A DNA stretch of 64,000 bases from positions 60,938 through 124,937 of the forward strand of contig JAOTYK010000007.1 of assembly GCA_029861955.1 (NCBI GenBank). The letters are read 5' to 3'. The notes beneath the pieces were generated by a model. That model ran no database searches. It saw only the letters and a list, made by a program, of their open reading frames with translations, and was not told the DNA's origin. This stretch comes from Acidobacteriota bacterium. GTDB taxonomy: Bacteria; Acidobacteriota; Polarisedimenticolia; Polarisedimenticolales; Polarisedimenticolaceae. A program made the translations under genes and the position numbers. Within the stretch, counting starts at the first letter, position 1. Each line of letters starts with the position of its first letter. Of the stretch, positions 21,821 to 63,981 are shown piece by piece.

Positions 21821-21987
21821 CGCAATCTCTCCTGAGGCAAGACCGGGATTCTATCCGAGGCCCGCCCCGGCGGCACCCGACCCAAGGGGAGCCTGGAGGT
21901 ATTTTGCCTTTTCTGGCCTCCGCCTACGCAAAAAAGTCGCGGCGCGGCCGTCATCGGCGGGTATATAAAACGGACGCGGAGATTCTC

Positions 21988-24900: not shown

Positions 24901-25761
24901 GTCGATGGCGACGGACTCTGCCAGGGGGACGACAACTGTCCCACCGTCGCCAACCCGGGTCAGAAGGACCTTGACGCCGACGGTGCCGGCGATTCGTGCG
25001 ATGTATGTCCGGCGGACCCCAATGACGACGCGGACGCCGACGGGTTCTGCGGTGACGTCGACAACTGCCAGACGGTCTCCAACCCGACCCAGGCCGACGC
25101 CGATGCCGATGGTGTCGGCGACGCTTGTGACGCGTGCCCGGCCGATCCCGACAACGACGTGGATGGCGACGGAGTCTGTGGCGATGTCGACAACTGCCCC
25201 AACGTCGCCAATCCGGGTCAGGAGGACGCGGACACCGATGGCGTCGGTGACGCCTGCGAAAATCCCGACGCCGATGGCGACGGCGTGCTGGATTTCATGG
25301 ATAACTGTCCCGCGGTGTTCAACCCTCCCCAGACCGACTCCGACCTCGACGGTATCGGTGATGCCTGCGATCTCTGCCCCGCCGATCCGCTGGACGACAT
25401 CGACGGCGACGGTGTCTGCGGCGACGTCGATAACTGCCCCGACACCTTCAACCCGGGACAGGAGGATGCCGACAGCAACGGTATCGGCGACGCCTGTCAG
25501 GCGATGAACGACGTGGATGGCGACGGAATCGCCGACGGATTGGACAATTGTCCTGCGGTGGCCAATACCAACCAGGCCGACGTCGATCTGGACGGGATCG
25601 GAGACGTCTGTGACAACTGCCCGCTCGTGAACAACACGCTGCAGACCGACAACGACGGCGACGGCGTCGGCAATCCCTGTGACAACTGTCGCAACGACCC
25701 CAACCCCGATCAGGCCGATTCCGACGGCGACGGGAAGGGCGATGTGTGTGACTCAAACTGA
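21988..25761 (+). CDS. giant secreted protein: beta-sandwich N-domain + purple-acid-phosphatase-like metallophosphoesterase + thrombospondin type-3 repeats
   Basis: Signal peptide ...LGSASAQE. The full PAP motif set is present: GDSGTGD, GDNAY, GNHD, WHHPPYS, GHSHSYER. The C-terminal 640 aa or so are DxDxDGxGDxCDxCP calcium-loop repeats. The track ORF starts at 21904; ATG 21988 gives the signal peptide. Confidence 0.85.
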   Translation: MSLSCAPGTARLSILMALFALAILGSASAQEITLVDEGTTTRYLSNVTDPGLGQAWTQFAFDDSGWTVGALGVGYESSTGAEALITTPVPVGSWSTYTRTTFNLADTSAIQNLVFGVDYDDGVVAWINGVEVYRSPNMPSGPPPWNAAPSTHESSNGATPSFEETDVTTTGGPVLQNGANTLSVGVWNTSGASSDLVLVPRLRANVPATVVRGPYLQMVGDDSITIQWRTSVATTSGVDFGTFPGNLSSSVLNFSTTVDHSIQLNGLGGDQTYYYAVGTVTQQLVGNDSDHVFRTAPANRAAIPLRIWVLGDSGTGDANATAVKDAYTTFTSGASTDLIFLLGDNAYPNGTDPEYQTKLFDMYDDYFVSTPVWSAIGNHDAASSNSVMQDGPYFEIFEFPTMAELGGVSSGTESYYSFDYANVHIVVLDSSGNPRIPTSPMMTWLDADLASTDQDWIIAFWHHPPYSKGSHDSDTELTMIEMRQWGVPILDAYGVDLTLTGHSHSYERSYLIDGHYGDSTTFMESMKVESGDGDPMGDGEYVKNAVGPLAHSGTVHVVAGSSGKITGGALDHPAMLESLNELGSLVIEINNNRLDLSFLNSAGAVSDTFGMLKGSGCFDPDLDGICAESDNCPDVANGSQADQDADGVGDACDPCPTDVGNDVDGDGLCASVDNCDLNANPLQEDNDGDGKGDVCDRDDDNDGVRDNIDCAPLIAGVSTLPGDIPYVTQDRQGPALRLIWTRAVQGHTSNVFRATRSAGGAVGFFDCLAPDIPQIDLVDNDTPPAGDVYLYLVNGHNVCGDGGLGVDGLGTPRADPGGCFAVSGDFDADAVIDAEDNCSLIANAAQADSDGDFVGNACDNCQWVANPQQIDSDDDGYGNGCSATDADGDTVPDVDDNCTFVFNDTQDDTDFDGNGDACDVCPLDNPGDPDGDGLCSADDNCPLIANPGQEDEDVDNLGDACDLCPGDPVNDVDGDGLCQGDDNCPTVANPGQKDLDADGAGDSCDVCPADPNDDADADGFCGDVDNCQTVSNPTQADADADGVGDACDACPADPDNDVDGDGVCGDVDNCPNVANPGQEDADTDGVGDACENPDADGDGVLDFMDNCPAVFNPPQTDSDLDGIGDACDLCPADPLDDIDGDGVCGDVDNCPDTFNPGQEDADSNGIGDACQAMNDVDGDGIADGLDNCPAVANTNQADVDLDGIGDVCDNCPLVNNTLQTDNDGDGVGNPCDNCRNDPNPDQADSDGDGKGDVCDSN

Positions 25762-26733: not shown

Positions 26734-29700
26734 ATGGGCGCACGCGTGTACAGACGGCTGATGATTGGCTTGCTCCTTGTTCTAGGGGTCGGCGTCGCGT
26801 TTGCCGAGACGATCGTCGTCGACTTCGGTGGCCCGACGCTGTACAAGGCCAACGACACGGACCCGGCCCTGGGGCTGACCTGGATCGCGCCTGGGTTTGA
26901 CGATGCCCTGTGGGATCCCGGCAACTTCGGTGTCGGCTATGAGACCGGCAGCGGCGCCGAGAATCTGATCCAGTCGATGATCCCTTCGACCAGCCGGTCG
27001 GCCTACACTCGAACCACCTTCAACGTGGCCGACAAGACATCGATCTTCAACATGATTCTCGGCCTCGACTACGACGACGCGGTCATCGTCTGGATGAACG
27101 GACAAGAGGTCTATCGCTCTCCGAATATGCCGCCCGGGCCACCACTCTGGAACACATCGGCGACGGCGGGGCACGAATCCAGCAATGCAGCGGCCCCCGT
27201 GTACGAGCTGTTCGACATCACGTCGATGGCGCTCCCCCACGTGGTCGATGGCGAAAACGTTCTGGCAATCGGCCTGTGGAACCACGGAACTGGCTCCAGT
27301 GACTTCGTGATTGCCCCGCAACTCGTTCTGAATCGGGTCGCCACCGTGACCCGTGGACCGTACCTGCAGATGGCGACACCCGACAGCGTTCGCATTCGAT
27401 GGCGAACCAACATTCCGGTGACGTCCCGTGTGCTCTACGGAGATGCCCCCGGCAACCTGCTCACTCCAGAGATGGACCCCATCCTCAAGCCGGACCACGA
27501 CGTCGAACTGACGGGGCTTCTTGCGGACACCCAGTATTTCTACGCCGTCGGCGACTCATCGACGATCCTCGCCGGTGACGACGCGGATCATCATTTCTTC
27601 ACGGCACCCCTGGTCGGCGTCGCGAAACCGATGCGCATCTGGGTCACCGGCGACTCCGGGACGGCCAATCTCGCTGCTCAGGATGTCCGCGATGCGTACC
27701 TGGCGTTTACCGCCGGAACTCGAACGGATTTCTGGCTGCTGCTGGGGGACAACGCGTATCCGTCTGGAACCGACCAGGAATACCAGGCGGCGTTCTTCGA
27801 CATGTACCCGACGATCCTTCGTCAGGTCAGCTCGTGGTCGACGATCGGCAATCATGACATCGTGAATCGAGGGTTGGAGACCGGCGCCTACTTCGACATC
27901 TTTTCCTTACCGTCAAACGCCGAGGCCGGCGGCCTGGTGTCGGGTACCGAGGCGTATTACTCATTCGATTACGGGAATATCCACTTCATCGTGCTGGACT
28001 CGTCGGGCACCGACCGGTCCGGCACGGGCACGATGATGACCTGGCTCGAGGACGACATCGCCGACACCAGTCAGGACTGGGTCGTCGCGTTCTGGCATCA
28101 CCCGCCGTACAGCAAGGGCTCTCACGATTCCGACACCGAAACGCCACTAATCGAGATGCGGACCAACGCGCTGCCCATCCTCGAGGACTACGGCGTCGAT
28201 CTTGTCCTTTCGGGACACAGCCACTCTTACGAACGGTCGTACCTCATCGACGGTCATTACGGAGACTCCACGACCTACGACGACCAGACGATGGAGTTGA
28301 ACGGCGGCGATGGACGGGTTACCGGCGACGGCCCGTATATCAAGACGCTCCTCGGTCCGGACCCGCATGCCGGGTCGGTCTACGTCGTGGCCGGAAGCTC
28401 GGGGCAACTGGGTGGCGGGACCCTGGATTACCCGGCCCACTACTTCGGGCTCCTCGAGCGCGGTTCGGTGGCGCTGGATGTGAATGGCCAACGACTCGAC
28501 GCGACGTTCATCGATCGGTTCGGAGCCGTTCGCGATACATGGACCATGATCAAGGGTCCCAATCCGTTGATGCCCGACGCGGAGTTCTCGACGTCGGCGG
28601 TACTAGGATTGATGCCGTTGAGCATCGACTTCTTCGACCTCTCGACCAACACGCCGACGAGTTGGGCCTGGGACTTCGAGAACGACGGCCAGCCGGACAG
28701 CGTGGCTCAGAACCCGACGCACTCCTACACCAACCCCGGGATTTACACGGTGGCCCTCGATGCGGGCAACATCTACGGCGTCGACGCCGAGATCAAGATC
28801 GACCAGGTCTGTGTCTACGAGAATGACCCGTCCCTGGTCGATGGCGCTGCATTCGAGTCATCGACCCGCCTGATCTGGAACGGCTACGCCGCCGGTCAGG
28901 CCTACGACACGATCCGTGGCGGGTTGCTGGACCTGCAGACCCTCGGGCTGAGCGGCACGCCGCTGACCTGCATCGAGAACGACGATGCCGATCTCCACGC
29001 AGATGACGCCACCCTCCCCGCAGCCGGTGATGGCTTCTTCTATCTGGTTCGCGCCGGCGACTGCGCAAACCGTACCGGAAGCTTCGACACGACGGGAATC
29101 GGTCAGCTCGAGTCTCGCGATCCGGCGCTCCAGGCCTCGGGCTCGGTCTGCAGCTGCGCCACCGGTGACGATATCGACGGCGACGCTCTCTGCGACCTGT
29201 TCGACGACTGCAAGGATACGGACGGCGATGGCTTCGGAAACCCGGGCTACCCTCAGGACACCTGCCCCACCGATAACTGCCCGGACATCAACAACGTTCC
29301 GCAGACCGATAGCGACATGGATCTCCTGGGTGATGCCTGCGATGTTTGCGCCCTGGATCCGGATAATGACATCGATGGCGATGGGGCCTGCGGTGATGTC
29401 GACAACTGTCCGGTCACCTCCAACCCGACACAGCTGGACACCGACAGTGACGGACCGGGCGACGCCTGTGACACTTGCACCGACACCGACGGGGACGGCT
29501 TCGGCAATCCGGGGTTCCCCGTCAACAGCTGCCCGGACGACAACTGCCCGATCGTTTCGAACGTCGGCCAGGGTAATGCCGACGGCGACATGCTGGGTGA
29601 CGCGTGCGATGCCTGCCCCGCTGACGCCGACAACGATCTGGACGGCGACACGATCTGTGGCGACGTCGATAATTGCCCGACGGTCTCCAACATCGGGCAG

Positions 29701-32382
29701 ACGGATCTCGACGGCGATCTTCTCGGCGACGCCTGTGACACGTGTCCCAACGATTTCAATAACGATGAGGACAGTGACACGATCTGTGGCGACGTGGACA
29801 ACTGTCCCACCGTCTCCAACATCGGCCAGGCGGATTTCGACGGCGATCTTCTCGGCGACGCCTGTGACGCGTGCCCCAACGACTTCAATAATGACGAGGA
29901 TTCCGACACGATCTGTGGCGATGTCGACAACTGCCCCACCGTCTCCAATGTCGGGCAGGGCAACGCCGATGGGGACGCCAACGGCGACGCCTGTGACATC
30001 TGTCCCAACGATGCCAACGACGACGAGGACGGCGACACGATCTGTGGCGATGTCGACAACTGCCCGACCATTTCAAACGTCGGGCAGGCGAATCTCGACG
30101 GCGATCTTCTCGGCGACGCCTGTGACGCGTGTCCCAACGATTTCAATAACGATGAAGACAGTGACACGATCTGTGGCGATGTCGACAACTGCCCCACCGT
30201 CTCCAACGTCGGCCAGTCCAACCTGGACGGCGATCTTCTCGGCGACGCCTGCGACACGTGTCCCAACGACTTCAACAATGACGAGGATTCCGACACGATC
30301 TGTGGCGATGTCGACAACTGCCCCACCGTCTCCAACGTCGGTCAGGGCAACGCCGATGGGGACGCCAACGGCGACGCGTGCGACATCTGCCCCAACGATG
30401 CCAACGACGACGAGGACGGCGACACGATCTGCGGCGACGTCGACAACTGCCCAACCATTTCAAACGTTGGCCAGGCCAACGCGGATGGCGACCTCCTCGG
30501 CGACGTCTGCGACAGCTGCCCCAACGACAGCGACAACGATCAGGATTCCGACACGATCTGCGGCGATGTCGACAACTGCCCAACGGTCGCAAACCTCGGT
30601 CAGGAGAATCTCGACGGGGACCTGCTGGGTGATGTCTGTGACACCTGTCCCAACGATAGCGACAACGACCAGGACTCCGACACGATCTGCGGCGACGTCG
30701 ACAACTGCCCGACCGTCTCCAACATGGGCCAGGGAAATGCCGACGGGGACGCCAACGGCGATGCCTGCGATATATGTCCCAACGATGCCAACGATGACGA
30801 GGATTCCGACACAATCTGCGGTGACGTCGATAACTGTCCGACCATCTCCAACGTTGGCCAGGCCAACGCCGATGGCGACCTGCTTGGCGACGCATGCGAT
30901 ACCTGCCCCAATGACAGCGATAACGATCAGGACGGCGACACGATCTGCGGCGACGTCGACAACTGCCCGGCAGTCTCCAACATCGGCCAGGCGAATCTCG
31001 ACGGCGATCTACTCGGCGATGCTTGTGACGCCTGCCCCAACGACATCAACAACGACGAAGATAGCGACACGATCTGTGGCGATGTCGACAACTGTCCCAC
31101 CGTGTCAAACGTCGGCCAGGGCAATGCCGACGGCGACGCCAACGGCGACGCCTGTGACGTCTGCCCCAACGACGCTAACGACGACGAGGATTCCGACACG
31201 GTCTGTGGCGATGTGGACAACTGTCCCACCACGTCAAATACCAACCAGCTCGACACCGACCTCGATACGCTTGGCGATGTATGTGATTCGTGCCCCAACG
31301 ATGCGGATAACAACATCGACGGCGACAATTTCTGTGGCGATGTGGACAACTGCCCATTCGTGCCGAACAACAACCAGCGTGACGACGACGGAGATCTCCT
31401 GGGCGACGCCTGTGACACGTGTCCCAACGACTTCAATAATGACGAGGATTCCGACACGATCTGTGGCGACGTCGACAACTGCCCCACCGTCTCCAATGTC
31501 GGTCAGTCCGACCTGGACGGCGATCTTCTCGGCGACGCCTGCGACACGTGTCCCAACGACTTCAACAATGACGAGGATTTCGACACAATCTGCGGCGACG
31601 TCGACAACTGCCCCACCGTCTCCAATACCGGCCAGGGCAACGCCGACGGCGATGCCGACGGCGACGCCTGCGACAGCTGCACCGACACCGATGGTGACGG
31701 ATTCGGCAACCCGGCGTTCCCGGCCAACAGCTGTCCCGACGATAACTGTCCGCTCATGGCGAATGCAGGCCAGGAAGACAACGAGTCCGACGGTCAGGGA
31801 GACATCTGCGATCCCGACGATGACAACGATGGCGTGATCGATCTTGACGACTGCGCCTCGTTCACGGCCGGTGTCGCCAATGATCCGCTCCCGATCGGTC
31901 CGTCGCTACGACTGAGGGGCGACATCGGCCAGACGCTGACCTGGACGAAGAGCTTCCAGGGCCACGTCAGCAACGTCTATGCGAGCCTGCGAGTGGGGAG
32001 CGGGCCGTTCGTGTTTCAGATGATCTGCTGGCGTTCGGAAGTGGTTAGGAACTCTACGACTATCAACACAGTTCCCGATCCCGGCGAGATGTGGTTCTAC
32101 CTGATCGGGGCTCGCAACAGCTGTGACGATTCGGCGATCGGCCAGGGATCGGATGGAACGCCAACCCAGTGGTCCGGGGCCTGTCCGTTCGGGGATAACG
32201 ATACCGACAGCGACACGATCCTCGATCTGGAGGATAACTGCTCGACGGTGGCGTCCCTCGATCAGACCGATGACGACGGTGACTTCATCGGGAACCTGTG
32301 CGACAACTGTCCGGCGACGTTCAACCCGGGGCAGGTCGACACGGACAACGATACGATCGGAGATGCCTGCGATCCGGGCTAG
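26734..32382 (+). CDS. giant secreted protein (1882 aa): beta-sandwich N-domain + PAP-like metallophosphoesterase + PKD domain + long thrombospondin type-3 repeat array
   Basis: Signal ...GVGVAFAE. The N-domain and phosphoesterase are clearly paralogous to 21988-25761 (GDSGTAN, GDNAY, GNHD, WHHPPYS, GHSHSYER). A PKD-like segment WAWDFENDGQPDSVAQNPTHSYTNPGIYTV lies at about 28600-28815. After that come arrays of about 43-aa Cys/Asp repeats. Confidence 0.88.
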   Translation: MGARVYRRLMIGLLLVLGVGVAFAETIVVDFGGPTLYKANDTDPALGLTWIAPGFDDALWDPGNFGVGYETGSGAENLIQSMIPSTSRSAYTRTTFNVADKTSIFNMILGLDYDDAVIVWMNGQEVYRSPNMPPGPPLWNTSATAGHESSNAAAPVYELFDITSMALPHVVDGENVLAIGLWNHGTGSSDFVIAPQLVLNRVATVTRGPYLQMATPDSVRIRWRTNIPVTSRVLYGDAPGNLLTPEMDPILKPDHDVELTGLLADTQYFYAVGDSSTILAGDDADHHFFTAPLVGVAKPMRIWVTGDSGTANLAAQDVRDAYLAFTAGTRTDFWLLLGDNAYPSGTDQEYQAAFFDMYPTILRQVSSWSTIGNHDIVNRGLETGAYFDIFSLPSNAEAGGLVSGTEAYYSFDYGNIHFIVLDSSGTDRSGTGTMMTWLEDDIADTSQDWVVAFWHHPPYSKGSHDSDTETPLIEMRTNALPILEDYGVDLVLSGHSHSYERSYLIDGHYGDSTTYDDQTMELNGGDGRVTGDGPYIKTLLGPDPHAGSVYVVAGSSGQLGGGTLDYPAHYFGLLERGSVALDVNGQRLDATFIDRFGAVRDTWTMIKGPNPLMPDAEFSTSAVLGLMPLSIDFFDLSTNTPTSWAWDFENDGQPDSVAQNPTHSYTNPGIYTVALDAGNIYGVDAEIKIDQVCVYENDPSLVDGAAFESSTRLIWNGYAAGQAYDTIRGGLLDLQTLGLSGTPLTCIENDDADLHADDATLPAAGDGFFYLVRAGDCANRTGSFDTTGIGQLESRDPALQASGSVCSCATGDDIDGDALCDLFDDCKDTDGDGFGNPGYPQDTCPTDNCPDINNVPQTDSDMDLLGDACDVCALDPDNDIDGDGACGDVDNCPVTSNPTQLDTDSDGPGDACDTCTDTDGDGFGNPGFPVNSCPDDNCPIVSNVGQGNADGDMLGDACDACPADADNDLDGDTICGDVDNCPTVSNIGQTDLDGDLLGDACDTCPNDFNNDEDSDTICGDVDNCPTVSNIGQADFDGDLLGDACDACPNDFNNDEDSDTICGDVDNCPTVSNVGQGNADGDANGDACDICPNDANDDEDGDTICGDVDNCPTISNVGQANLDGDLLGDACDACPNDFNNDEDSDTICGDVDNCPTVSNVGQSNLDGDLLGDACDTCPNDFNNDEDSDTICGDVDNCPTVSNVGQGNADGDANGDACDICPNDANDDEDGDTICGDVDNCPTISNVGQANADGDLLGDVCDSCPNDSDNDQDSDTICGDVDNCPTVANLGQENLDGDLLGDVCDTCPNDSDNDQDSDTICGDVDNCPTVSNMGQGNADGDANGDACDICPNDANDDEDSDTICGDVDNCPTISNVGQANADGDLLGDACDTCPNDSDNDQDGDTICGDVDNCPAVSNIGQANLDGDLLGDACDACPNDINNDEDSDTICGDVDNCPTVSNVGQGNADGDANGDACDVCPNDANDDEDSDTVCGDVDNCPTTSNTNQLDTDLDTLGDVCDSCPNDADNNIDGDNFCGDVDNCPFVPNNNQRDDDGDLLGDACDTCPNDFNNDEDSDTICGDVDNCPTVSNVGQSDLDGDLLGDACDTCPNDFNNDEDFDTICGDVDNCPTVSNTGQGNADGDADGDACDSCTDTDGDGFGNPAFPANSCPDDNCPLMANAGQEDNESDGQGDICDPDDDNDGVIDLDDCASFTAGVANDPLPIGPSLRLRGDIGQTLTWTKSFQGHVSNVYASLRVGSGPFVFQMICWRSEVVRNSTTINTVPDPGEMWFYLIGARNSCDDSAIGQGSDGTPTQWSGACPFGDNDTDSDTILDLEDNCSTVASLDQTDDDGDFIGNLCDNCPATFNPGQVDTDNDTIGDACDPG
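29538..31680 (+). repeat. in-frame tandem array of 129-nt (43-aa) units with a 387-nt higher-order period
   Basis: The anchor gacac(g/a)atctg(t/c)ggc recurs at 29647, 29776, 29905, 30034, 30163, 30292, 30421, 30550, 30679, 30808, 30937, 31066, 31195, 31453 and 31582, with a diverged copy at 31324. Spacing is exactly 129 nt. Compared units look roughly 90% or more identical by eye. Confidence 0.92.
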
Positions 32383-55985: not shown

Positions 55986-56038
55986 AATAATTGGGGCTAG
56001 ACTTCTTGTTGTTCTGGCCAACCGGTGGAGAGCGTCTG

Positions 56039-57526
56039 ATGGGTCGACTACGCGGATCAAACCTTGTCATCGTCGTTCTGGTGCTGGCGCTGCTGTCGGG
56101 TCCTCACGTCTCCATGGCAGGCGACGCCGGCGAGCTACGGACCGAGGCGTTCGAACGGCTGAACAGGGGCGTCAACGCCTATAAGAAGGGGCGCTTCGAC
56201 GAGGCGATCGAGCATCTCACCGTCGCCAGCAACATCGCCCTCAATAACTTTCGCATCTATTACTACCTGGGCCTGGCGTTGAATGGCGGACGTCGCTACG
56301 ACGACGCTCTCAAGGTTCTCGCTGTCGCTCTGGATCTCGAGCCGGATCATCTGGAGGCCAACGTCGCCGTCGGCAACAGCTGGTTGAAGCTGGGAGATCT
56401 TTCGGAGGCTCAGGCCGCCTACACGTTGGCGCTGAAGCTACGGCCGGAACATGCCTCGGCCCTGGACGGTCTGGCCCGTATCGCCGAGGCTCAGTCGAAG
56501 GATCGCGAGGCGACCCTGACCTATCGGCGGGCCCTGGCAAGCAATCCCGGCTACGCCCCGGCGTATACCCATCTCGGCAGCCTGCACCTCCGACTGGAGC
56601 AATATGAGGAGGCCGTCGAACTCCTGGAAGAGGCGGTCTCGGTGCGACCGGACTTCGCCGACGGCATGAACCGGCTGGCCCAGGCCTACAACCGCCTGGG
56701 GCTAAGGAATCAGGCTATCGCGACGATCCAGCGGGCCATCGAGCTGGAGCCGTTCAACCCCGCGCACATCGCCACGTTCGGCTGGCTGCAACTGGATCAG
56801 AACTACCCTGACAGCGCCGTACGACTGTTTACCCAGGCCGTCGAGATCGACCACGCTCATCCATCGGCCCAACGGGGTCATGCCGAGATCGCTCGACGGG
56901 ACGGCCAGTACGACGTCGCGCTGGAACACCTGAAGATCGCCATCGACGATCCCCGGCTGGGCGCGCTGACCCGGCTCGACCTCGAGACCTTCGCCGGCGA
57001 GATCCAGGAGGAACAGGTCGCCCACCAGGCATTGCAGGCGCGCTTCGAGGACGGCACGGCCACCGAGTCCGATCACGGCGAGATGGCGGCGATCATGGCC
57101 CGTCGTGCACGCTGGCCCCAGGCCGTCACATTGCAACGGCAGGCCGGCGACAGCGCTTCGTCTCAGGAGCGATTGGCCTACATGTTGTTTGAAGCCCAGG
57201 AGTACCTGGAGTCCCGCAAGCTCTACACCCAACTGGCGGCGGAATCCGATCGTGCCGACCTGTTCGTCAACGAGGGCGTCTGCGCCGCGGTGGTCGGCGA
57301 TGATCCGGGTGCCGTGACCGCATTCCGCAACGCGTTGCAACGGAACCCCGACCTCTCCGCGGCCCAACTCTACCTTGCCAACGCGCTCCTCCGTCTTGGC
57401 AAGATCGACTCGGCGAGTGTGGCCTACGATGCGTTTCTTGCCGACAACCGCACCGGCGAGTCGGCGGAGCGGGTCCGTCGGATCCTGAAACAGATCGCAC
57501 CGTCGGCCGAGGGAGAGACCCCATGA
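56039..57526 (+). CDS. secreted TPR-repeat protein
   Basis: Signal-like LVIVVLVLALLSGPHVSMAGD, then many canonical TPR units (AIEHLTVASNIALNNFRIYYYLGLAL, ALKVLAVALDLEPDH, AYTLALKLRPEH...). Confidence 0.8.
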   Translation: MGRLRGSNLVIVVLVLALLSGPHVSMAGDAGELRTEAFERLNRGVNAYKKGRFDEAIEHLTVASNIALNNFRIYYYLGLALNGGRRYDDALKVLAVALDLEPDHLEANVAVGNSWLKLGDLSEAQAAYTLALKLRPEHASALDGLARIAEAQSKDREATLTYRRALASNPGYAPAYTHLGSLHLRLEQYEEAVELLEEAVSVRPDFADGMNRLAQAYNRLGLRNQAIATIQRAIELEPFNPAHIATFGWLQLDQNYPDSAVRLFTQAVEIDHAHPSAQRGHAEIARRDGQYDVALEHLKIAIDDPRLGALTRLDLETFAGEIQEEQVAHQALQARFEDGTATESDHGEMAAIMARRARWPQAVTLQRQAGDSASSQERLAYMLFEAQEYLESRKLYTQLAAESDRADLFVNEGVCAAVVGDDPGAVTAFRNALQRNPDLSAAQLYLANALLRLGKIDSASVAYDAFLADNRTGESAERVRRILKQIAPSAEGETP

Positions 57527-58695
57527 GACCGCTTCGTCTAATCTTTCTCTCTTCCGTCGTGCTGGCGTTGTTTACCGGATCCGTGACCGCACAGGATTCG
57601 ACCCGCAGGAAAGGGTTCTCGATCACCATCGCCGAACCACCCAACCAGACGGTCGTCTTCGGTCGCACGAAGATCGTCGCGGATCTCAAGTCCACCGATG
57701 CCTCGCAGGTCGAACGGGTGGAGTTCATCGTCGGCGACACGGTGGTCTTCGTCGATCGGGAGTCCCCGTGGGAGTACTTCCACGACTTCGGCGCCGGCGA
57801 TCGCAGCAACATCGTCAAGGTCGTCGCCCATCACATCGAGGGCGTGACGGTCAGCGACACGATCGTCACCCGCAAGTTGCGTTTCGTGACGGTGGATCGG
57901 GTCAATAGAGTCCTGTTGTGGGTCACCGCCACCGACAAGAAGGGCGATCTGATTACGGACCTGGAGGAAGACGACTTCGTCCTCAACGAGAACGGCGAAC
58001 CGCAGAAGATCATCGATTTCTATCGTGAGGATCGTCCGATCACCATGGCGATCCTGGTCGATACGTCGGGCTCGATGCGAGACAAGCTGAAGGATGTGCA
58101 CGAAGCCGCCGGCGATTTCGTCAGCACGTTACGTCCGGAAGACAAGGCGCTCGTCATCGACTTCAACGCCAATGTCTTTCTGATCCAGGATCTGACCGCG
58201 GATCACGAGGCGCTGCGAAAGTCCATCGAGAGCACCGAGGCCTTCGCCAACACCGCGCTGTATGACGCGTTGCACGCCAGCTATCGTCGGATCGGAGATA
58301 TCGAGGGTCGCAAGGCCATCGTGGTGCTGTCGGATGGTGAGGACACGATCAGCCAATTCAGCTATCAGCGTGTGTTGAAGGAAGCCAAGTCCAACAACAC
58401 GATGATCTTCTCTATCGGACTGGGCTACGGCGGTGGCGGCGCAGACACCAATGTGTTGAAGGAGCTTTCAGCCTCCACCGGTGGACAGTTCTTCTACGCC
58501 AAGAAGCCGCAGCAGCTTGTGGAGATCTACGCCCGTATCGCCGAGGAGCTACGGGCCCAGTTCTATATCTCGTACTCAACCAATAACGAGAAGTGGGACG
58601 GCCACTGGATCAAGTTGAAGGTCCACAGCAAGCGCGACGACGTCTCGATCCGTGCCCGGCGTGGTTACTTCGCCGTCCGTCGGGAAGACGGCTAG
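57523..58695 (+). CDS. secreted von Willebrand factor A (VWA) domain protein, acidobacterial VWFA-related type
   Basis: Signal peptide, and the MIDAS motif ILVDTSGSM with downstream LSDGEDT and the terminal YFAV-type strand. ATG overlaps the upstream stop (ATGA). Confidence 0.86.
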   Translation: MRPLRLIFLSSVVLALFTGSVTAQDSTRRKGFSITIAEPPNQTVVFGRTKIVADLKSTDASQVERVEFIVGDTVVFVDRESPWEYFHDFGAGDRSNIVKVVAHHIEGVTVSDTIVTRKLRFVTVDRVNRVLLWVTATDKKGDLITDLEEDDFVLNENGEPQKIIDFYREDRPITMAILVDTSGSMRDKLKDVHEAAGDFVSTLRPEDKALVIDFNANVFLIQDLTADHEALRKSIESTEAFANTALYDALHASYRRIGDIEGRKAIVVLSDGEDTISQFSYQRVLKEAKSNNTMIFSIGLGYGGGGADTNVLKELSASTGGQFFYAKKPQQLVEIYARIAEELRAQFYISYSTNNEKWDGHWIKLKVHSKRDDVSIRARRGYFAVRREDG

Positions 58696-58928: not shown

Positions 58929-60242
58929 ATGAGATGTTTTTCGAAGATTTCGATAGCGGCGATTGTTGCGGCAATCTTGTCGGTCGTCGTGCTTTCTGGG
59001 CCAACGTCCCTATTGGCGATCGAGCCATTCGAACCCCTGACCATACGGGTAAACGACGCTTACGGTGTACCCGGTGGTACCGCCGCAGTCGTACTTCGCA
59101 CTTACTCTTCCCGTCCGATCAGTCAGGGCCAACTCTGTATGCAATTCTCTCCGGATAGCCCCGGTGCGCGGGATCCGATTGCATCGGTCGTCAGTGCGCG
59201 TGTCTTCAGTAGCATTCCTGATGTGACCTCCAGCGTGACGGATATGTTGAGTGTGAACCCGCAAGCAATTATCCTCAGTTTCGATTCGCCGTCTATCACG
59301 GTGAACGCAACTGACGGACCGCTCGCCGTGTTCTTCATGAAACTTGATCCGGCATTACTTCCGGGAGCGACCTACGAACTCGCGATCGACCTGGGCAATA
59401 CACAACTGGTGAACTCCTCGGGTGCGCTGATCGAGGTACGACAACGTTCCGGTACGTTGACCATCCGGGATCCCTCCGAAGAAATCGAGGTTGAAGCCGG
59501 TGCCGAGGATGTGATTCCAGGAGAAAAAGCTCTGCTCAGTTTCTCGACTGCCGAGTTCTTCGCGATTGGAAGCGGTCGAGCTACGATTCTCTACGATCCT
59601 GCAATTGCTGATGGATTGCCAGTCGTCTTCATGCAATCTCGACATGGTCAATCCAATTTCACGACCGACCTGACGATCCCAGGGCGTGCACAGGTGGATT
59701 TCATTTCACCCGATGGTTCGCTCAACGAAGTTCCAGGGGATATCGTCGAATTCTGGTTGCCGACCAGGTCTGATATTCCGGTCGGTACCAAGTCGCTTAT
59801 CACACTCGAGCCGTCGGCGACGTTTCTCGAAGATCCTGTCGGAAATTTGCTCAATCTGGACCACGAAAGCGATCTACTTGAATTTGTCAGTGCGCCGGCC
59901 CTCCTTCCCGGGGCGATCCGGGAACTTCGTGTCAATCGCTCCGAATCGGGACAGTTACAGTTGAACTGGCAGGAAGATTGTGGATCCGCGCTGGGATACT
60001 CGATCTACCGGGGCGATCTAACCGAAGGTTACGACTCGATCGTGCCGGTAGCGGGACTCTGTTCCGTGAGCAGCACCCACGTCGAGATTCCGATGAGTAC
60101 GGGGCTTGCAGAATTCTTTCTGGTCGTCCCGTTTCGGGATGAATCCGGTGGGTCGTACGGAGTAGATTCACTCGGAGACCATCGCACGCCGCCGGCGAAT
60201 GCATGTTGGGCTTCCGGCGAGGCCAATGACTGCGCACCGTAG
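58929..60242 (+). CDS. secreted protein: two beta-sandwich (cohesin-like?) domains + C-terminal Cys-flanked Fn3-like module
   Basis: Signal peptide ISIAAIVAAILSVVVLSGPTSLLA. The sequence is beta-rich. The C-terminal 105 aa (LQLNWQEDCGSALGYSIYRGDL..FFLVVPFRDESGGSYGVDSLGDHR..C) share a pattern with modules in the two giant proteins. Lower GC than the flanks. Confidence 0.7.
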   Translation: MRCFSKISIAAIVAAILSVVVLSGPTSLLAIEPFEPLTIRVNDAYGVPGGTAAVVLRTYSSRPISQGQLCMQFSPDSPGARDPIASVVSARVFSSIPDVTSSVTDMLSVNPQAIILSFDSPSITVNATDGPLAVFFMKLDPALLPGATYELAIDLGNTQLVNSSGALIEVRQRSGTLTIRDPSEEIEVEAGAEDVIPGEKALLSFSTAEFFAIGSGRATILYDPAIADGLPVVFMQSRHGQSNFTTDLTIPGRAQVDFISPDGSLNEVPGDIVEFWLPTRSDIPVGTKSLITLEPSATFLEDPVGNLLNLDHESDLLEFVSAPALLPGAIRELRVNRSESGQLQLNWQEDCGSALGYSIYRGDLTEGYDSIVPVAGLCSVSSTHVEIPMSTGLAEFFLVVPFRDESGGSYGVDSLGDHRTPPANACWASGEANDCAP

Positions 60243-62793
60243 TCCACGATCGTTCTTGATCCGCAAGATCTCTTACGCCGTTATCGCCCTGGTCGTATTC
60301 GTTATCGCCACCCACTCACCTGAAGCATTCGCGCCATCACTCGAAGATGCGCGTGCGTTTTACAGAGCAGGCCAGCTCGAGCAAGCGATCGATGCTTTTC
60401 GTGCTGTCGCCGATGCCACCGAGAACAGCGATCCCGTGACGGCGGGCATCTGCCGGAACAATGCATGCGTACTGTTAACAGATCGCGGGGAGCTTGGGCC
60501 CGCTCTGAAGCAATGTGTACTTGCACTGGAGTTACGGCGCAACTTCGACGACCCCTGGCGTGTGGCTCGAACACTGAACAACCTCGGCCGGGTTCAGGAG
60601 CGACTCGGTAATTTCGATGAAGCGAAAAGAAGTTTTCTTGAAGCACTCGCCCTGAATCGCGCGGGAGACGACGCGGCCGGCGCATCAATCAACCTCTCCA
60701 ACCTTGGAGGACTCGCGATCCAGGCCGGGTGGTACTCGCAGGCGATCGATTACCAACGCCGCGCGTACGAAACTGCGCAACAGCACCAGGGAGAACCATG
60801 GGCCGACGAGCAGATGCGATTCGCACGGGTCAATCAAGCTGTCGTACTGGAGAGATTTGGTGCGTTTCGGGAGGCACTTCGACTCTACGATGCCGTTATC
60901 GACGAGGGGCACGAGATGTCGGCAACATATCGTGCCGGCATCCTCGTCAATCGTGGCGTGGCACTCAGAAATCTGGGTGATCCGCTGCGGGCTCTCGAGG
61001 CGTTTAACGATGCATCCGAGATCTACATCACAGATAAGGACCATGCGGCACTATCTAATGCTCGACTGAACCAGGGCCTTGTACAGCAATTGAACCTGCG
61101 GGATCCCGTTGCCGCTGAGAGTTCCTACCGCAAAGCGTTGGCCCTCGCTGAAGCAAGCGGGGAGCGGGCTGGGCAAATCGACAGTTTCTGTCGACTCGGC
61201 GGGCTGCTGCTGGATCTGGGACGCGCCGATGAAGCGCTGCCACTATTTGAACGATCTCTTGAGATCTCGGAGAGCAGTGGATCGAGCGAGGGGCGCTGGG
61301 CGTCTCTGAACGGACTGGGACATTCTGCGCTCGCGCGTGACGATTCCCCTGCAGCACTTAGCCACTTCCTCGCGGCCATCAATGCGATCGAGCTGGTCCG
61401 CGATAGTCTCACCACGAGTACGGATCGCGTCGGCTACTTTACCGACAAGCGGTCAGTATACGAATCCGCCATCGAAGTCCTTGCCGGAATCGCGGATAAA
61501 GACACAGGCGGCGAGCATGCACAACTCGCGTTTCGCCTGGCCCAGCAGGCCAAGAGCCGCGCGTTGCTCGACGTACTGGGTCCAGGTGCCCTCGTCGCAA
61601 TACCGCTCGACGCTCAGGCGGTGATCGATGCCCTAGGAGATGACGTACTTCTTGAATACTTCATTGGATCTTCAGCCGCATTTGCATGGATCGTCAGCGC
61701 CAGTGGAATCGAAATGCGTTCGCTTGGAGCGTCGGAGGTGATCCTCAAAGATGTGGAGCAGATTTACGACGCGCTATCTCGCGGACGTCGCGCATCTTCG
61801 GAAGCTATTGAACGACTCTCGCAAACCTTACTTCACGATATCAATCTTCCTGCGGGACCTAACGGACAGCTCCGCGTCTCACCGGACAATACATTACGGA
61901 AACTACCCTTTGAACTTCTTGAGCTACCCGCTGAAAGCGGCATTCCACTCATTGAGACCGTAACGATAAGCTATCTGCCGAGCGGCTCCGCGCTACCCTG
62001 GCTTCGTAGAGCACGTGAATCTCCGTCCTGGATGTCTATAGGCTTCGGTAATCCACAACTGCCGACCCATGCGCATGAGAATCTTTCTCTTAGTAGTGTT
62101 CTGCTGGCGGCATTTGAACTCGAACCGTTGCCCGCCGCTGCCGATGACGTGCGAGCCATCGAGCGCTATCTCCCTGGACGACATGCCACACGGATCGGTA
62201 CCGCGGCAAGTGAAACGGCGTTTTTCGAACTTGTTGGTTCAGGTGCTAAAGTCGTCCACATCGGGGCACATACGCTCGTGGATGAACGACGAGGAGCGAC
62301 TATCCTGCTGACCCGAGATGCGGAACAGGACGGTCTGCTGCAGCCTCACGAAATCGCGACCCTCGATATTTCTGTCGAATTGACGGTGCTGGCCGCTTGT
62401 CGTACAGCGTCAGGGCCGGTTGCTGGAGGGGGTGCTTTATCAACTCTGACCGGATCTTTTCTAGCCGCGGGATCCAGCGGTGTTCTCGCCACGCTTTGGG
62501 ATGTGGGCGATCAAGACGCTGCCGTGTTCATGGAACAGTTCTACTCTCAACTCGGACGCGGGCAGACTCCGGCAGCCGCCCTACGCGCCGCGAAAATGCG
62601 CCTGCGGTCGGAGCCGGACTGGAACGATCCCGCGGTCTGGTCTGCCTACGTTCTCGTCGGAGACGCAGCACCGTTGGTTTCTCGAAGAATTACGAATGGC
62701 CGTTTGACAACGATCGTGCTCGCGTCAGTGGCGCTGCTCCTGGCCATTTTTTTGACTTACGGAATCATCCGAAAACGTACCGTCTCGGATTGA
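60226..62793 (+). CDS. TPR-CHAT protein (caspase-fold Cys/His protease) with N- and C-terminal TM helices
   Basis: N-terminal RSPRSFLIRK + ISYAVIALVVFVIATH, about 400 aa of TPR_12-like repeats (LNNLGRVQ, LSNLGGLA), then a CHAT core. The CHAT core has VHIGAHTLVDE (His codon 62269-62271) and LTVLAACRTASG (Cys codon 62398-62400). The C-terminal helix LTTIVLASVALLLAIFLTYGII is followed by RKR. Confidence 0.86.
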   Translation: MTAHRSPRSFLIRKISYAVIALVVFVIATHSPEAFAPSLEDARAFYRAGQLEQAIDAFRAVADATENSDPVTAGICRNNACVLLTDRGELGPALKQCVLALELRRNFDDPWRVARTLNNLGRVQERLGNFDEAKRSFLEALALNRAGDDAAGASINLSNLGGLAIQAGWYSQAIDYQRRAYETAQQHQGEPWADEQMRFARVNQAVVLERFGAFREALRLYDAVIDEGHEMSATYRAGILVNRGVALRNLGDPLRALEAFNDASEIYITDKDHAALSNARLNQGLVQQLNLRDPVAAESSYRKALALAEASGERAGQIDSFCRLGGLLLDLGRADEALPLFERSLEISESSGSSEGRWASLNGLGHSALARDDSPAALSHFLAAINAIELVRDSLTTSTDRVGYFTDKRSVYESAIEVLAGIADKDTGGEHAQLAFRLAQQAKSRALLDVLGPGALVAIPLDAQAVIDALGDDVLLEYFIGSSAAFAWIVSASGIEMRSLGASEVILKDVEQIYDALSRGRRASSEAIERLSQTLLHDINLPAGPNGQLRVSPDNTLRKLPFELLELPAESGIPLIETVTISYLPSGSALPWLRRARESPSWMSIGFGNPQLPTHAHENLSLSSVLLAAFELEPLPAAADDVRAIERYLPGRHATRIGTAASETAFFELVGSGAKVVHIGAHTLVDERRGATILLTRDAEQDGLLQPHEIATLDISVELTVLAACRTASGPVAGGGALSTLTGSFLAAGSSGVLATLWDVGDQDAAVFMEQFYSQLGRGQTPAAALRAAKMRLRSEPDWNDPAVWSAYVLVGDAAPLVSRRITNGRLTTIVLASVALLLAIFLTYGIIRKRTVSD

Positions 62794-63302
62794 GCGATCA
62801 AATCGCCATCAACATCTCGCGCCTCAACCCGCCAGAGGTAGGCCACCGCGGGAAATAACTGCGAGTAGGCGTTCTCGGGTAGATCGATCGTCTCTCTATC
62901 TGTTTCTGCTTCCCACAACAGGCTGTCGTCTACCGTGAAAATCTGCACCTGGTAATGCACTGCGCGATCAACTGACCGCCAGCGGAGTGTCTGTGGAACT
63001 ACGGTCAGCTCTCCCGACGGCGCAATCAATTCTAACTGAGTACCACGTACAACAGAACCCGTGCCCCGCGAAGGCACCTCGGGATCGTCGGTGGGTATGA
63101 GAATCAGTCCCGCGCTCACGGCCACAATTAGGACCGCGGCCGCCGCGAGTGCTCGTAGTGACCCTCGGAATCGCTTGGGGGTCTCTTTCTTGAGACGTCG
63201 GCGTAACGTTCTGGCATTCGGCAACGCAGCATCCCGTGGCTCATGTAGGTGCTCGCCCTTGAGTGCCCTGGCAACCCAACGTTCCCAATTGTCCCGACTC
63301 AT
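62757..63302 (-). CDS. single-pass membrane protein, putative non-canonical anti-sigma factor
   Basis: It lies downstream of the ECF sigma gene on the same strand. It has a 45-aa basic cytoplasmic N-part, the TM helix ALAAAAVLIVAVSAGLILI, and a beta-rich outer domain of about 115 aa (LRWRSVDRAVHYQVQIFT..YLWRVEARD). No HxxxCxxC motif. The GTG at 63317 is an alternative start. Confidence 0.55.
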   Translation of the reverse strand: MSRDNWERWVARALKGEHLHEPRDAALPNARTLRRRLKKETPKRFRGSLRALAAAAVLIVAVSAGLILIPTDDPEVPSRGTGSVVRGTQLELIAPSGELTVVPQTLRWRSVDRAVHYQVQIFTVDDSLLWEAETDRETIDLPENAYSQLFPAVAYLWRVEARDVDGDLIAQSETVRFRMIP

Positions 63303-63396
63303 GTTCTCCACCCCCACTCACCAGACCGCGCAGATTCGCGGCTGATGCGTATCCAGTAGACAACGATGACAGGGCTGAAATACATCAATTGCTCTC

Positions 63397-63981
63397 TCAC
63401 GGCTCCTCTCCACCGAGGTCGTCATAGATACGCCGTAACTTGTCGAGACACCGAGCCCGAGTAGGACCCAGACTTCCGATGGGCCGATCCATTATTTGTG
63501 AGATCGTTTCGTAGGTTTTTGGTGGATCGTCCAGGTACAGTGCCCCCAGTAAGGTTTGACAGGTCGGATCCATTTGCTCGAACGCCAACGAAAGCGTGTG
63601 CTCGCAAGCAACTTCGTGGAGATCCGCCGCCAGGTCAGGAGGAGCCTCGCCCGGTTCTTCCGTCACTTCGTCGTCGAGTGAACGCCAACGTTTGCCCGTC
63701 CGCAGGGCCGTCTGGCAGGTATTCCGCGTGGTGACGGCGATCCACGCCCCAAGGGATCCTGCGCTGCGCAGCGATCCAATGTGACGAAAGAGTTTAAGAG
63801 CAACGACCTGCAAGACTTCCTCGGCCTCATCAACCGACATCCGGTAGGTCAAAGGAATCGAGAAAATCAATCGGCGATAGCGTTGGAGCAATAGACCCCA
63901 AGCCGCGTCATCTCCTTCGACGCATGCTCGAACAAGGGCCTCATCGTCGATCTTTGCGGAACTAGAGGACACGTTGGGCAA
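63397..63981 (-). CDS. ECF-type RNA polymerase sigma factor
   Basis: Region 2 (AWGLLLQRYRRLIFSIPLTYRMSVDEAEEVLQVVALKLF, LGAWIAVTTRN) and region 4 (KTYETISQIMDRPIGSLGPTRARCLDKLRR). The window ends 19 nt upstream of its start. Confidence 0.9.
   Translation of the reverse strand: MPNVSSSSAKIDDEALVRACVEGDDAAWGLLLQRYRRLIFSIPLTYRMSVDEAEEVLQVVALKLFRHIGSLRSAGSLGAWIAVTTRNTCQTALRTGKRWRSLDDEVTEEPGEAPPDLAADLHEVACEHTLSLAFEQMDPTCQTLLGALYLDDPPKTYETISQIMDRPIGSLGPTRARCLDKLRRIYDDLGGEEP

Follow-up and report, generated by a model that had tools for sequence, protein, structure and literature searches.

A four-gene locus at the end of the window

In a 64,000-nucleotide stretch of DNA from an Acidobacteriota bacterium (hereafter "the window," part of a 204-kb metagenomic contig, ENA ERZ28013244), four clustered genes, here called A to D, appear to encode an envelope-signaling module that includes a TPR-CHAT protein and a sigma factor of the extracytoplasmic function (ECF) type. 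Gene A (58929 to 60242, forward strand) encodes a 437-residue secreted protein with an N-terminal signal peptide. Gene B (60226 to 62793, forward strand) encodes a predicted exported, membrane-tethered TPR-CHAT protease of 855 residues. On the reverse strand, gene C (62757 to 63302) encodes a 181-residue single-pass transducer, presumed to be an anti-sigma factor, and gene D (63397 to 63981) encodes the sigma factor, of 191 or 194 residues with a start at 63972 or 63981, respectively. All four open reading frames (ORFs) were present as described in an earlier note made by a model from the DNA sequence, and the ORF list bore out the strands, the 17-nucleotide overlap of A with B (60226 to 60242), the 37-nucleotide convergent overlap of the 3' ends of B and C (62757 to 62793), and the 19 nucleotides that remain between position 63981 and the window's end. 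D is upstream of C on the same strand, with a gap of 94 nucleotides between them. Because each of the four has homologs at 40 to 77% identity in other assemblies, we regard them as real genes. The start of B at 60226 is the choice of the source assembly's gene caller. An upstream ATG at 60199 would yield 864 residues; a look-up of this longer version returned no match, the recorded protein being the 855-residue version that starts at 60226. In what follows, L-numbers refer to compared loci and P-numbers to compared proteins, L001 being the window's own locus extended beyond the window end. Convergent 3' overlaps of 35 to 85 nucleotides between B and either C or A recur in other loci (L005, 9294 to 9378; L006, 10464 to 10517; and many metagenome loci).

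B is predicted to be a periplasmic, membrane-tethered TPR-CHAT protease

Family searches agreed with the TPR-CHAT and ECF sigma identities assigned in the earlier note. In the Pfam search, B matched the CHAT family PF12770 (E = 2.4e-53) together with several TPR families. The protein is laid out as an N-terminal signal or anchor (60253 to 60324) preceded by only nine residues, a TPR superhelix (60340 to 61578), a CHAT caspase-fold domain (61807 to 62664), and a C-terminal membrane helix (62701 to 62769) followed by the basic tail RKRTVSD. Its orthologs form a sharply bounded family of about 40 proteins of 820 to 875 residues that share about 33 to 51% identity over more than 90% of their length; just outside this family, identity falls to 28%. 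In 21 aligned orthologs, H678, H682, and C725 were invariant. His682 (codon at 62269 to 62271, motif HIGAH-T) and Cys725 (codon at 62398 to 62400, motif VLAAC-RT) are the predicted catalytic residues.

The best structural match to B in the PDB is DdvA, the TPR-CHAT protein of the Myxococcus DdvA-DdvS system, in which protease and anti-sigma factor are one protein and the catalytic dyad is H862/C907 (PMC11506125). Pairwise alignment of B with the DdvA chain placed H682 on H862 and C725 on C907. Searched against the PDB, a profile of the B family retrieved DdvA (8rot_B, E = 1.4e-12) as the sole CHAT chain among the 60 matches listed. A single-sequence PDB search with full-length B returned TPR proteins only, DdvA being reached only with the profile or with a CHAT-only segment. 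The AlphaFold2 (AF2) model of B (predicted local distance difference test [pLDDT] score, 87.2; predicted template modeling score, 0.84) gave DdvA (8rot_A) as its top Foldseek match at E = 2e-16; separases and Csx29 ranked behind, with Csx29 structures matched at E ~1e-12.

A hydrophobic C-terminal helix followed by an Arg/Lys-rich tail was present in 21 of 21 orthologs, and a signal-peptide-like N-terminal segment was present in most of them. Given the export signal or anchor and the C-terminal membrane helix with its basic tail, the TPR-CHAT body of B is predicted to be periplasmic, with the C terminus as its tether to the inner membrane. These features support the periplasmic orientation of the CHAT domain that had been predicted from the window. 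A PEP-CTERM-type sorting signal was considered as a reading of the C-terminal helix and Arg-rich tail and was rejected: no NCBIfam sorting-signal family matched, and there was no conserved motif before the helix. Family searches and the topology of the orthologs likewise revealed no ZAS domain in B.

A is modeled as a tandem cohesin-fold protein

No Pfam or NCBIfam family, Pfam Cohesin included, matched the product of A, and a word-indexed search found only 18 homologs. The AF2 model (pLDDT, 85.8) is all beta. Its Foldseek matches included 3l8q, a type II cohesin dyad (E = 4e-13), and single cohesins, the latter with TMt values of 0.72 to 0.77. According to this model, a signal peptide (58929 to 59018) is followed by two cohesin-fold domains (59031 to 59468 and 59481 to 59888) and a Cys-containing, FN3-like C-terminal domain (59916 to 60239), which makes A a cohesin-fold tandem ending in an FN3-like tail. 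The signal peptide and all-beta fold first noted for A therefore stand, and its description as a generic beta-sandwich gives way to the tandem cohesin fold. No dockerin family was found in A, B, C, or D with Pfam and NCBIfam.

C combines a short cytoplasmic head with a conserved linker and Ig-like ectodomain

The product of C also lacked any Pfam or NCBIfam match. Its single membrane helix (residues 51 to 70; 63093 to 63152), which agrees with its initial description as a single-pass protein, separates a short cytoplasmic head of 50 residues (63150 to 63302), in which the motif W-E-x-W…L-x-E-P is conserved, from a conserved juxtamembrane linker (63021 to 63092; P-E-V-P-S-R…V-R-G) and a periplasmic Ig/FN3-like domain (62760 to 63020). 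Only two close homologs were found by word-index search; an exhaustive phmmer search returned 2065 matches. The membrane helix and ectodomain of C (residues ~40 to 181) are ~40% identical to the corresponding part of proteins of ~245 residues that have at their N terminus either a zf-HC2 (ZAS) anti-sigma motif or, in some cases, a receiver domain. The ZAS-headed homologs are encoded directly after an ECF sigma factor. Across 40 aligned C-like proteins, the linker motif (P-x-L-P, 7 to 8 residues, then R-G/S) was kept ahead of the Ig-like domain irrespective of the head. A PDB search with a profile of the ZAS-headed C-like proteins retrieved neither the DdvA N-terminal domain nor any other anti-sigma structure.

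In the receiver-headed variants (L004, 11860 to 12765; L108, 8001 to 8969; and L014, L028, L038, L041, and L043), an N-terminal receiver domain precedes a membrane helix, after which come the linker and Ig-like domain seen in C; such a membrane-tethered receiver domain is an unusual architecture. These variants adjoin A and B, together with a hybrid histidine kinase and an OmpR-type regulator or with genes for CheB, CheR, and a methyl-accepting chemotaxis protein (MCP), and there is no sigma factor. The Ig/FN3-like unit of C also occurs 10 to 20 times in giant proteins, such as P0123, P0124, and P0126 (2600 to 3500 residues, 15 to 20 copies).

The sigma factor and the head of C vary together

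D matched Sigma70_r2 in Pfam (E = 2.7e-10) and the ECF family TIGR02937 (sigma70-ECF; E = 1.7e-14; 53.7 bits against a cutoff of 42.9) over residues 28 to 184, spanning sigma-2 and sigma-4. Orthologs of D hold the same position in L002, L003, L005, and L008. In L104, A and B match those of the window at phmmer E values of 3e-115 and 1e-227, respectively (its B, P0005, is 50% identical); the sigma factor is only 28% identical to D, and the head of the C-like protein is ZAS. Since A and B are near those of the window while sigma and head are divergent, sigma and head appear to have been exchanged as a unit. More broadly, ZAS heads occur with one type of sigma factor, short heads with D-type sigma factors, and receiver heads without a sigma factor. 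The sigma factor and the head of C thus seem to travel as a pair, the behavior expected of cognate partners, and this co-variation is the best available evidence that the short head of C is the part that would bind D. The position of C, 94 nucleotides after the sigma gene as for a class I anti-sigma factor, and its single-pass, N-in topology fit such a role, with sigma binding presumed. Position, topology, homology to the ZAS-headed proteins, and head/sigma co-variation together lead us to presume that C is the anti-sigma factor of D.

A, B, and C-like genes recur together in different orders

Conservation of the gene set was surveyed from three independent anchors (individual B orthologs, A-anchored loci in GTDB species genomes, and B-anchored loci in metagenome contigs) and supplemented by look-ups of C homologs. 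The B-anchored scan yielded 64 ortholog loci. Where at least 3 kb of sequence was available downstream of B, A and a C-like gene lay beside B in 15 of 23 loci (12 with an ECF sigma gene and 3 with a receiver head); where 1.2 to 3 kb was available, they did so in 10 of 15. Anchoring on A gave 16 loci, 12 of which carried a C-like gene adjoining or close to A (across B in L018 and L021). Eleven of these C-like genes follow an ECF sigma gene and one has a receiver head. B was found within 8 kb in 7 of the 16; three of the 16 were orphans, and one was too short to judge.

Individual loci illustrate the variety of arrangements, of which at least five retain the set. The B ortholog P0004 (51% identity) lies in the window's gene order, including the ABC exporter and glycosyltransferase cluster described below. 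For P0039 (34% identity), from a gammaproteobacterial metagenome-assembled genome (MAG), B converges on A, which is followed by a ZAS-headed C-like gene and then an ECF sigma gene. P0025, in a 3.99-Mb genome, converges on A and on a C-like gene with a receiver head, beyond which lie CheB, CheR, and MCP genes and no sigma gene. Similarly, the receiver-headed C homolog P0148 adjoins A and B and a divergent pair of genes for an OmpR-type regulator and a hybrid kinase. In L104 (5212 to 10479), reached through the ZAS-headed C homolog P0159, sigma, C, A, and B are codirectional and form one operon, with 4-nucleotide overlaps among sigma, C, and A. L005 and L008 share the order of the window (A and B convergent with C and sigma); the commonest order is B converging on A, C, and sigma. 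The loci are spread over Thermoanaerobaculia, Holophagales, Polarisedimenticolia, and two gammaproteobacterial MAGs. Throughout, A, B, and the helix, linker, and Ig-like domain of C are constant, and the cytoplasmic head is variable. Judged by this conserved synteny, the genes probably form one functional module.

The survey thus bears out the synteny of CHAT homologs with the sigma/membrane-protein pair that the earlier note had set as a test of its CHAT-to-sigma proteolytic relay. A linked, CRISPR-independent unit stands; the relay itself proved too narrow a description. Because some loci pair the A, B, and C set with a receiver head and no sigma factor, the conserved cassette is broader than a route from CHAT to sigma. 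Outside the ortholog family, distant TPR-CHAT paralogs (22 to 31% identity) adjoin C-like ZAS anti-sigma proteins without A (L085, L087, L090, and L101) or divergent ECF sigma genes (L097, L100, L102, and L103); the association of CHAT with ECF factors therefore reaches beyond the orthologs of B.

Neighboring genes suggest control of envelope glycoconjugates

D is divergent from an ABC exporter gene in all window-type loci (L001, L002, L003, L005, and L008). Sulfotransferase, GT4, and APH genes come next where the contig reaches; L003 ends at the ABC gene, and no sulfotransferase was found in L005. The motif GTATCA-N15-CGTC, a candidate ECF-type promoter, lies just past the window's end (~64054; L001, 13829 to 13853), ~90 nucleotides upstream of the ABC gene, and is conserved in L002 (9225 to 9249) and L008 (13077 to 13100 and 7805 to 7829). 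It occurs again upstream of the cluster's next operon (L001, 21510 to 21534) and, only in L008, upstream of A; inside the 64-kb window it had no match. Also conserved, upstream of D, are a TATAAT box and a TGATACG element, neither of them interpretable. The G+C content is ~57% from a VWA gene at ~57.5 kb through A to D and the ABC exporter, sulfotransferase, glycosyltransferase, and APH cluster, compared to ~64% elsewhere. This stretch of more than 15 kb (~57500 to L001 22500) is a compositional island, possibly acquired as a unit. The conserved neighborhood points to the synthesis and export of envelope glycoconjugates, and not to phage defense, as the process that the module may control in this organism.

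The absence of Cas7-11, other cas genes, and CRISPR arrays from the 64 kb, as first reported, held up. Tandem Repeats Finder and a direct-repeat scan detected no CRISPR-like array in the window, and no cas gene was present among its 10 largest other ORFs, which are housekeeping or envelope genes (UvrA, GlmU, GlmS, UvrD, an M28 peptidase, two TSP3 phosphoesterases, an acyl-CoA dehydrogenase, a RapA-like helicase, and a POT transporter). PADLOC gave no defense-family or CRISPR-family match for A, B, C, or D. We also inspected the contig beyond position 64000. The 10 kb past the window encode the ABC exporter, the sulfotransferase, two GT4 glycosyltransferases, two APH-type kinases, and a GT28-like protein, with no cas7-11 or array, which excludes a type III-E system just outside the window over that distance.

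Upstream of A lie genes for a VWA protein (57523 to 58695; the Acidobacteria-specific TIGR03436, above cutoff) and a 511-residue TPR protein (55991 to 57526), which are not kept with the module in other loci. Farther away, the two phosphoesterases (21904 to 25761 and 26734 to 32382) are very large secreted calcineurin-like metallophosphoesterases with long TSP_3 arrays, encoded by 129-nucleotide tandem DNA repeats (24774 to 25259 and 29538 to 31679).

A proposed mechanism and its alternatives

We propose that the four genes constitute one envelope-signaling module, a split form of the DdvA-DdvS type, a reading in which our confidence stands midway between acceptance and rejection. A, B, and the Ig-like ectodomain of C would meet in the periplasm while the short cytoplasmic head of C holds D inactive. 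A signal would be sensed through A, the TPR array of B, or both. The His682/Cys725 site of B would then cut C in trans, most plausibly at the P-x-L-P…R-G linker, as a site-1 cleavage, and truncated C would become a substrate of an RseP-type site-2 protease, releasing D. As a protein-binding cohesin dyad, A could act as adaptor, cosensor, protector, or inhibitor. Freed D would probably drive the divergent ABC exporter, sulfotransferase, glycosyltransferase, and kinase cluster. Here we infer C-D binding, the cleavage by B of C rather than of A, the position of the cut, what A does, the participation of a site-2 protease, and the regulon. That B cuts C in trans as a site-1 protease is a plausible but somewhat doubtful element of the scheme. 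More tentatively still, A, B, and the ectodomain of C may constitute a portable periplasmic proteolytic sensor cassette, in which a cohesin dyad is the adaptor, the caspase-fold CHAT protein makes the site-1 cut in trans, and the Ig-like transducer contributes a conserved, cleavable linker. Such a cassette would have been plugged during evolution into different outputs by way of a ZAS head, a new short anti-sigma head, or a membrane-tethered receiver head (two-component or Che systems).

Several observations weigh against this scheme. With respect to C, Pfam searches and alignments identified neither Zn (Cys/His) ligands nor a recognizable anti-sigma domain in its head, and hhalign of this head against the ZAS heads aligned only the membrane helix. 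In the receiver-headed variants, which have no sigma factor, proteolytic release is not an obvious mechanism, and the Arg-Gly of the linker could be structural, a lead-in to the Ig-like domain. Autoproteolysis of DdvA itself has not been demonstrated (PMC11506125). Linkage is also incomplete. In 8 of the 23 well-flanked B loci, no A, C-like, or downstream sigma gene is nearby; L032, one of these eight, has just an unrelated upstream sigma match, and in L026 and L057 the B gene adjoins a hybrid kinase instead of the partners. Three orphan homologs of A (L009, L010, and L012) have unrelated surroundings, with CHAT, C-like, and sigma genes all absent within 8 kb. A and C are linked more tightly than B and C, with B 4.6 to 7.6 kb away in L011 and L020, an arrangement that fits equally well A as the partner of C and B as acting on A. 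Finally, in the window, no ECF-like motif was found upstream of A, nor any ECF-type promoter common to the upstream regions of D and A.

As to the kinases just mentioned, a large same-strand kinase gene with a receiver-domain match precedes B in both loci (L026, 2 to 1567; L057, 3937 to 6531), and the start of the L026 kinase resembles a CHASE-type sensor motif as judged by eye. This adjacency suggests a further type of coupling.

The tight linkage of A to C, which adjoin in most loci that have both, speaks for an alternative that we consider unlikely, in which B acts on A and not on C. A would shield the Ig-like domain of C, as RseB shields RseA, or inhibit B, as securin inhibits separase; on signal, CHAT would destroy A, after which C would be inactivated either by a generic site-1 protease or through a conformational change. 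The translational coupling of A to B in the window through the 17-nucleotide overlap and the nature of cohesin folds as protein-binding modules are in keeping with this view, as is the control of TPR-CHAT relatives by the proteins bound to them as partners or substrates (securin in the case of separase, Csx30 in that of Csx29). Some B paralogs or orthologs, however, pair with C-like proteins in the absence of A (L041, L085, L087, L090, and L101).

Somewhat less likely again, A and B may be outputs: the sigma/anti-sigma pair would sense some other cue through the Ig-like domain of C and merely coregulate two regulon members, one a periplasmic protease and the other adhesin-like. In most loci, sigma, C, and A make up a single apparent operon, as for an autoregulated ECF unit, and GTATCA-N15-CGTC is also found upstream of A-B in L008. 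In the window, however, this motif was not found upstream of A, and the cassette of A, B, and C survives replacement of the sigma factor by a receiver head with two-component or Che genes. Because the cassette persists with receiver heads, a periplasmic interaction is favored over shared transcription by one sigma factor.

It is improbable that B is a noncatalytic scaffold or receptor, whose TPR-CHAT body would perceive a ligand and pass the signal to C through binding, with no proteolysis. The CHAT site of DdvA is incomplete in its resting state, and DdvA dyad mutants behaved as wild type under the conditions tested (PMC11506125); in the model of B, the loop after Cys725 (residues 729 to 735) has low pLDDT. 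Nevertheless, the His/Cys dyad is invariant in 21 orthologs at only 33 to 51% identity, which is hard to explain without catalysis.

A role as a phage-defense regulator, whether DdvA-DdvS-like or as a degenerate type III-E (Csx29/Csx30/RpoE) remnant, is very improbable. DdvA-DdvS does govern a CBASS (cyclic oligonucleotide-based antiphage signaling system)/CRISPR island (PMC11506125), Csx29 is a TPR-CHAT protein linked to an ECF-type sigma factor (PMC10028731), and the present locus lies within a low-GC island. Yet no cas gene, array, or PADLOC family was detected in the window or the next 10 kb, the conserved neighbors are envelope glycoconjugate genes, B is predicted to be periplasmic, unlike Csx29, and only a subset of DdvA-like pairs lies near defense genes (PMC11506125). 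Coincidental adjacency, for which one might cite the abundance of both ECF sigma factors and TPR-CHAT proteins in Acidobacteriota and the 8 of 23 well-flanked B loci without partners, is effectively refuted by the synteny survey, in which the same rare families (A with only 18 word-index homologs, C with its distinctive linker and domain) accompany B in different phyla and despite several rearrangements.

Comparison with known systems

Regulated intramembrane proteolysis of ECF anti-sigma factors is exemplified by RseA, with DegS, RseP, and RseB, and by RsiW, with PrsW. As in those systems, a single-pass, presumed anti-sigma factor is encoded here directly after the sigma factor, and a periplasmic event is proposed to remove its ectodomain for a site-2 protease; A could serve an accessory role like that of RseB. 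The candidate site-1 protease, however, is a locus-encoded caspase-fold CHAT protein and not a serine or metalloprotease of the DegS or PrsW type, and the head of C is not a recognizable class I anti-sigma domain. In the CnrYXH system, the ECF sigma factor CnrH is controlled by the short class II anti-sigma factor CnrY and the periplasmic sensor CnrX. By description, the module resembles this system in that a single-pass protein has a very short cytoplasmic head, presumed to be anti-sigma in the module, and would work with a separate periplasmic sensor protein, whereas CnrX signals by metal binding and not by proteolysis. The two N-terminal domains of A form a cohesin-fold dyad like that of a cellulosomal scaffoldin (the type II cohesin dyad of ScaA, PDB 3L8Q); in contrast to scaffoldins, A has no Pfam Cohesin match, A to D have no dockerin, and the context is periplasmic signaling.

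Type III-E craspase comprises Cas7-11/gRAMP, Csx29 (TPR-CHAT), Csx30, Csx31, and RpoE (PMC10028731). The precedent that the earlier note saw in Csx29/Csx30 holds insofar as a TPR-CHAT protein is genetically linked to an ECF-type sigma factor, with proteolysis of a sigma-binding protein as the proposed output. The nearest precedent is instead DdvA-DdvS, the best match to B in the PDB by both sequence and structure. Neither Cas7-11 nor a crRNA or array is present at the module, and B is predicted to be periplasmic and membrane anchored, in contrast to Csx29, which is cytoplasmic, activated by RNA, and docked on its effector. Lacking the effector, the array, and the cytoplasmic location, the module is not type III-E. 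In the literature linking CHAT to ECF sigma factors, the periplasm, or cohesin, only the DdvA and type III-E papers were found, and the main text of the ECF reclassification paper does not mention CHAT.

We read the module as closest to DdvA-DdvS, of which it would be a split version that has one more partner and whose cytoplasmic heads can be exchanged. In both, a periplasmic TPR-CHAT protein with a His/Cys dyad is encoded beside an ECF sigma gene, no cas gene is needed in cis, and the proposed logic is a CHAT site-1 cut at the juxtamembrane linker followed by RseP. For DdvA, the bulky periplasmic TPR-CHAT region blocks RseP, and signal-activated self-cleavage of the juxtamembrane linker in trans has been proposed (PMC11506125). 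The differences begin with the division of labor: DdvA carries a fused cytoplasmic N-terminal CHCC zinc-binding anti-sigma domain and is anchored by an N-terminal helix, whereas B lacks a ZAS domain and has its anchoring helix at the C terminus, the protease (B) and the presumed anti-sigma factor (C) being separate polypeptides. C bears its own Ig-like ectodomain, its head is exchangeable (short, ZAS, or receiver), and there is a third conserved partner, the cohesin dyad A. The neighbors of the module are envelope glycan genes rather than CBASS or CRISPR genes. Fused DdvA-like proteins have been reported only in Myxococcota and one Comamonas (PMC11506125), and the split family occurs in Acidobacteriota and Gammaproteobacteria. 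Because ZAS and TPR-CHAT are not joined in one chain, the module is not a member of the DdvA family as defined.

These differences bear on how the mechanism can be studied. The DdvA study could not show CHAT-started intramembrane proteolysis, given that the signal is unknown and that protease and substrate are one chain; with a separate protease, candidate substrate, and third partner, cleavage becomes testable in trans. The module extends periplasmic TPR-CHAT signaling from Myxococcota to Acidobacteriota and Gammaproteobacteria, links such a protease to a cohesin-fold partner and to an Ig-like transducer with a conserved linker, and indicates that one periplasmic cassette serves both sigma factor and receiver-domain outputs. 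If the portable cassette that we tentatively propose proves correct, B would be, in bacterial transmembrane signaling, the first caspase-like site-1 protease that is dedicated to this task and encoded as a protein of its own, and the locus would offer an experimentally tractable, split version of the as yet unproven DdvA mechanism.

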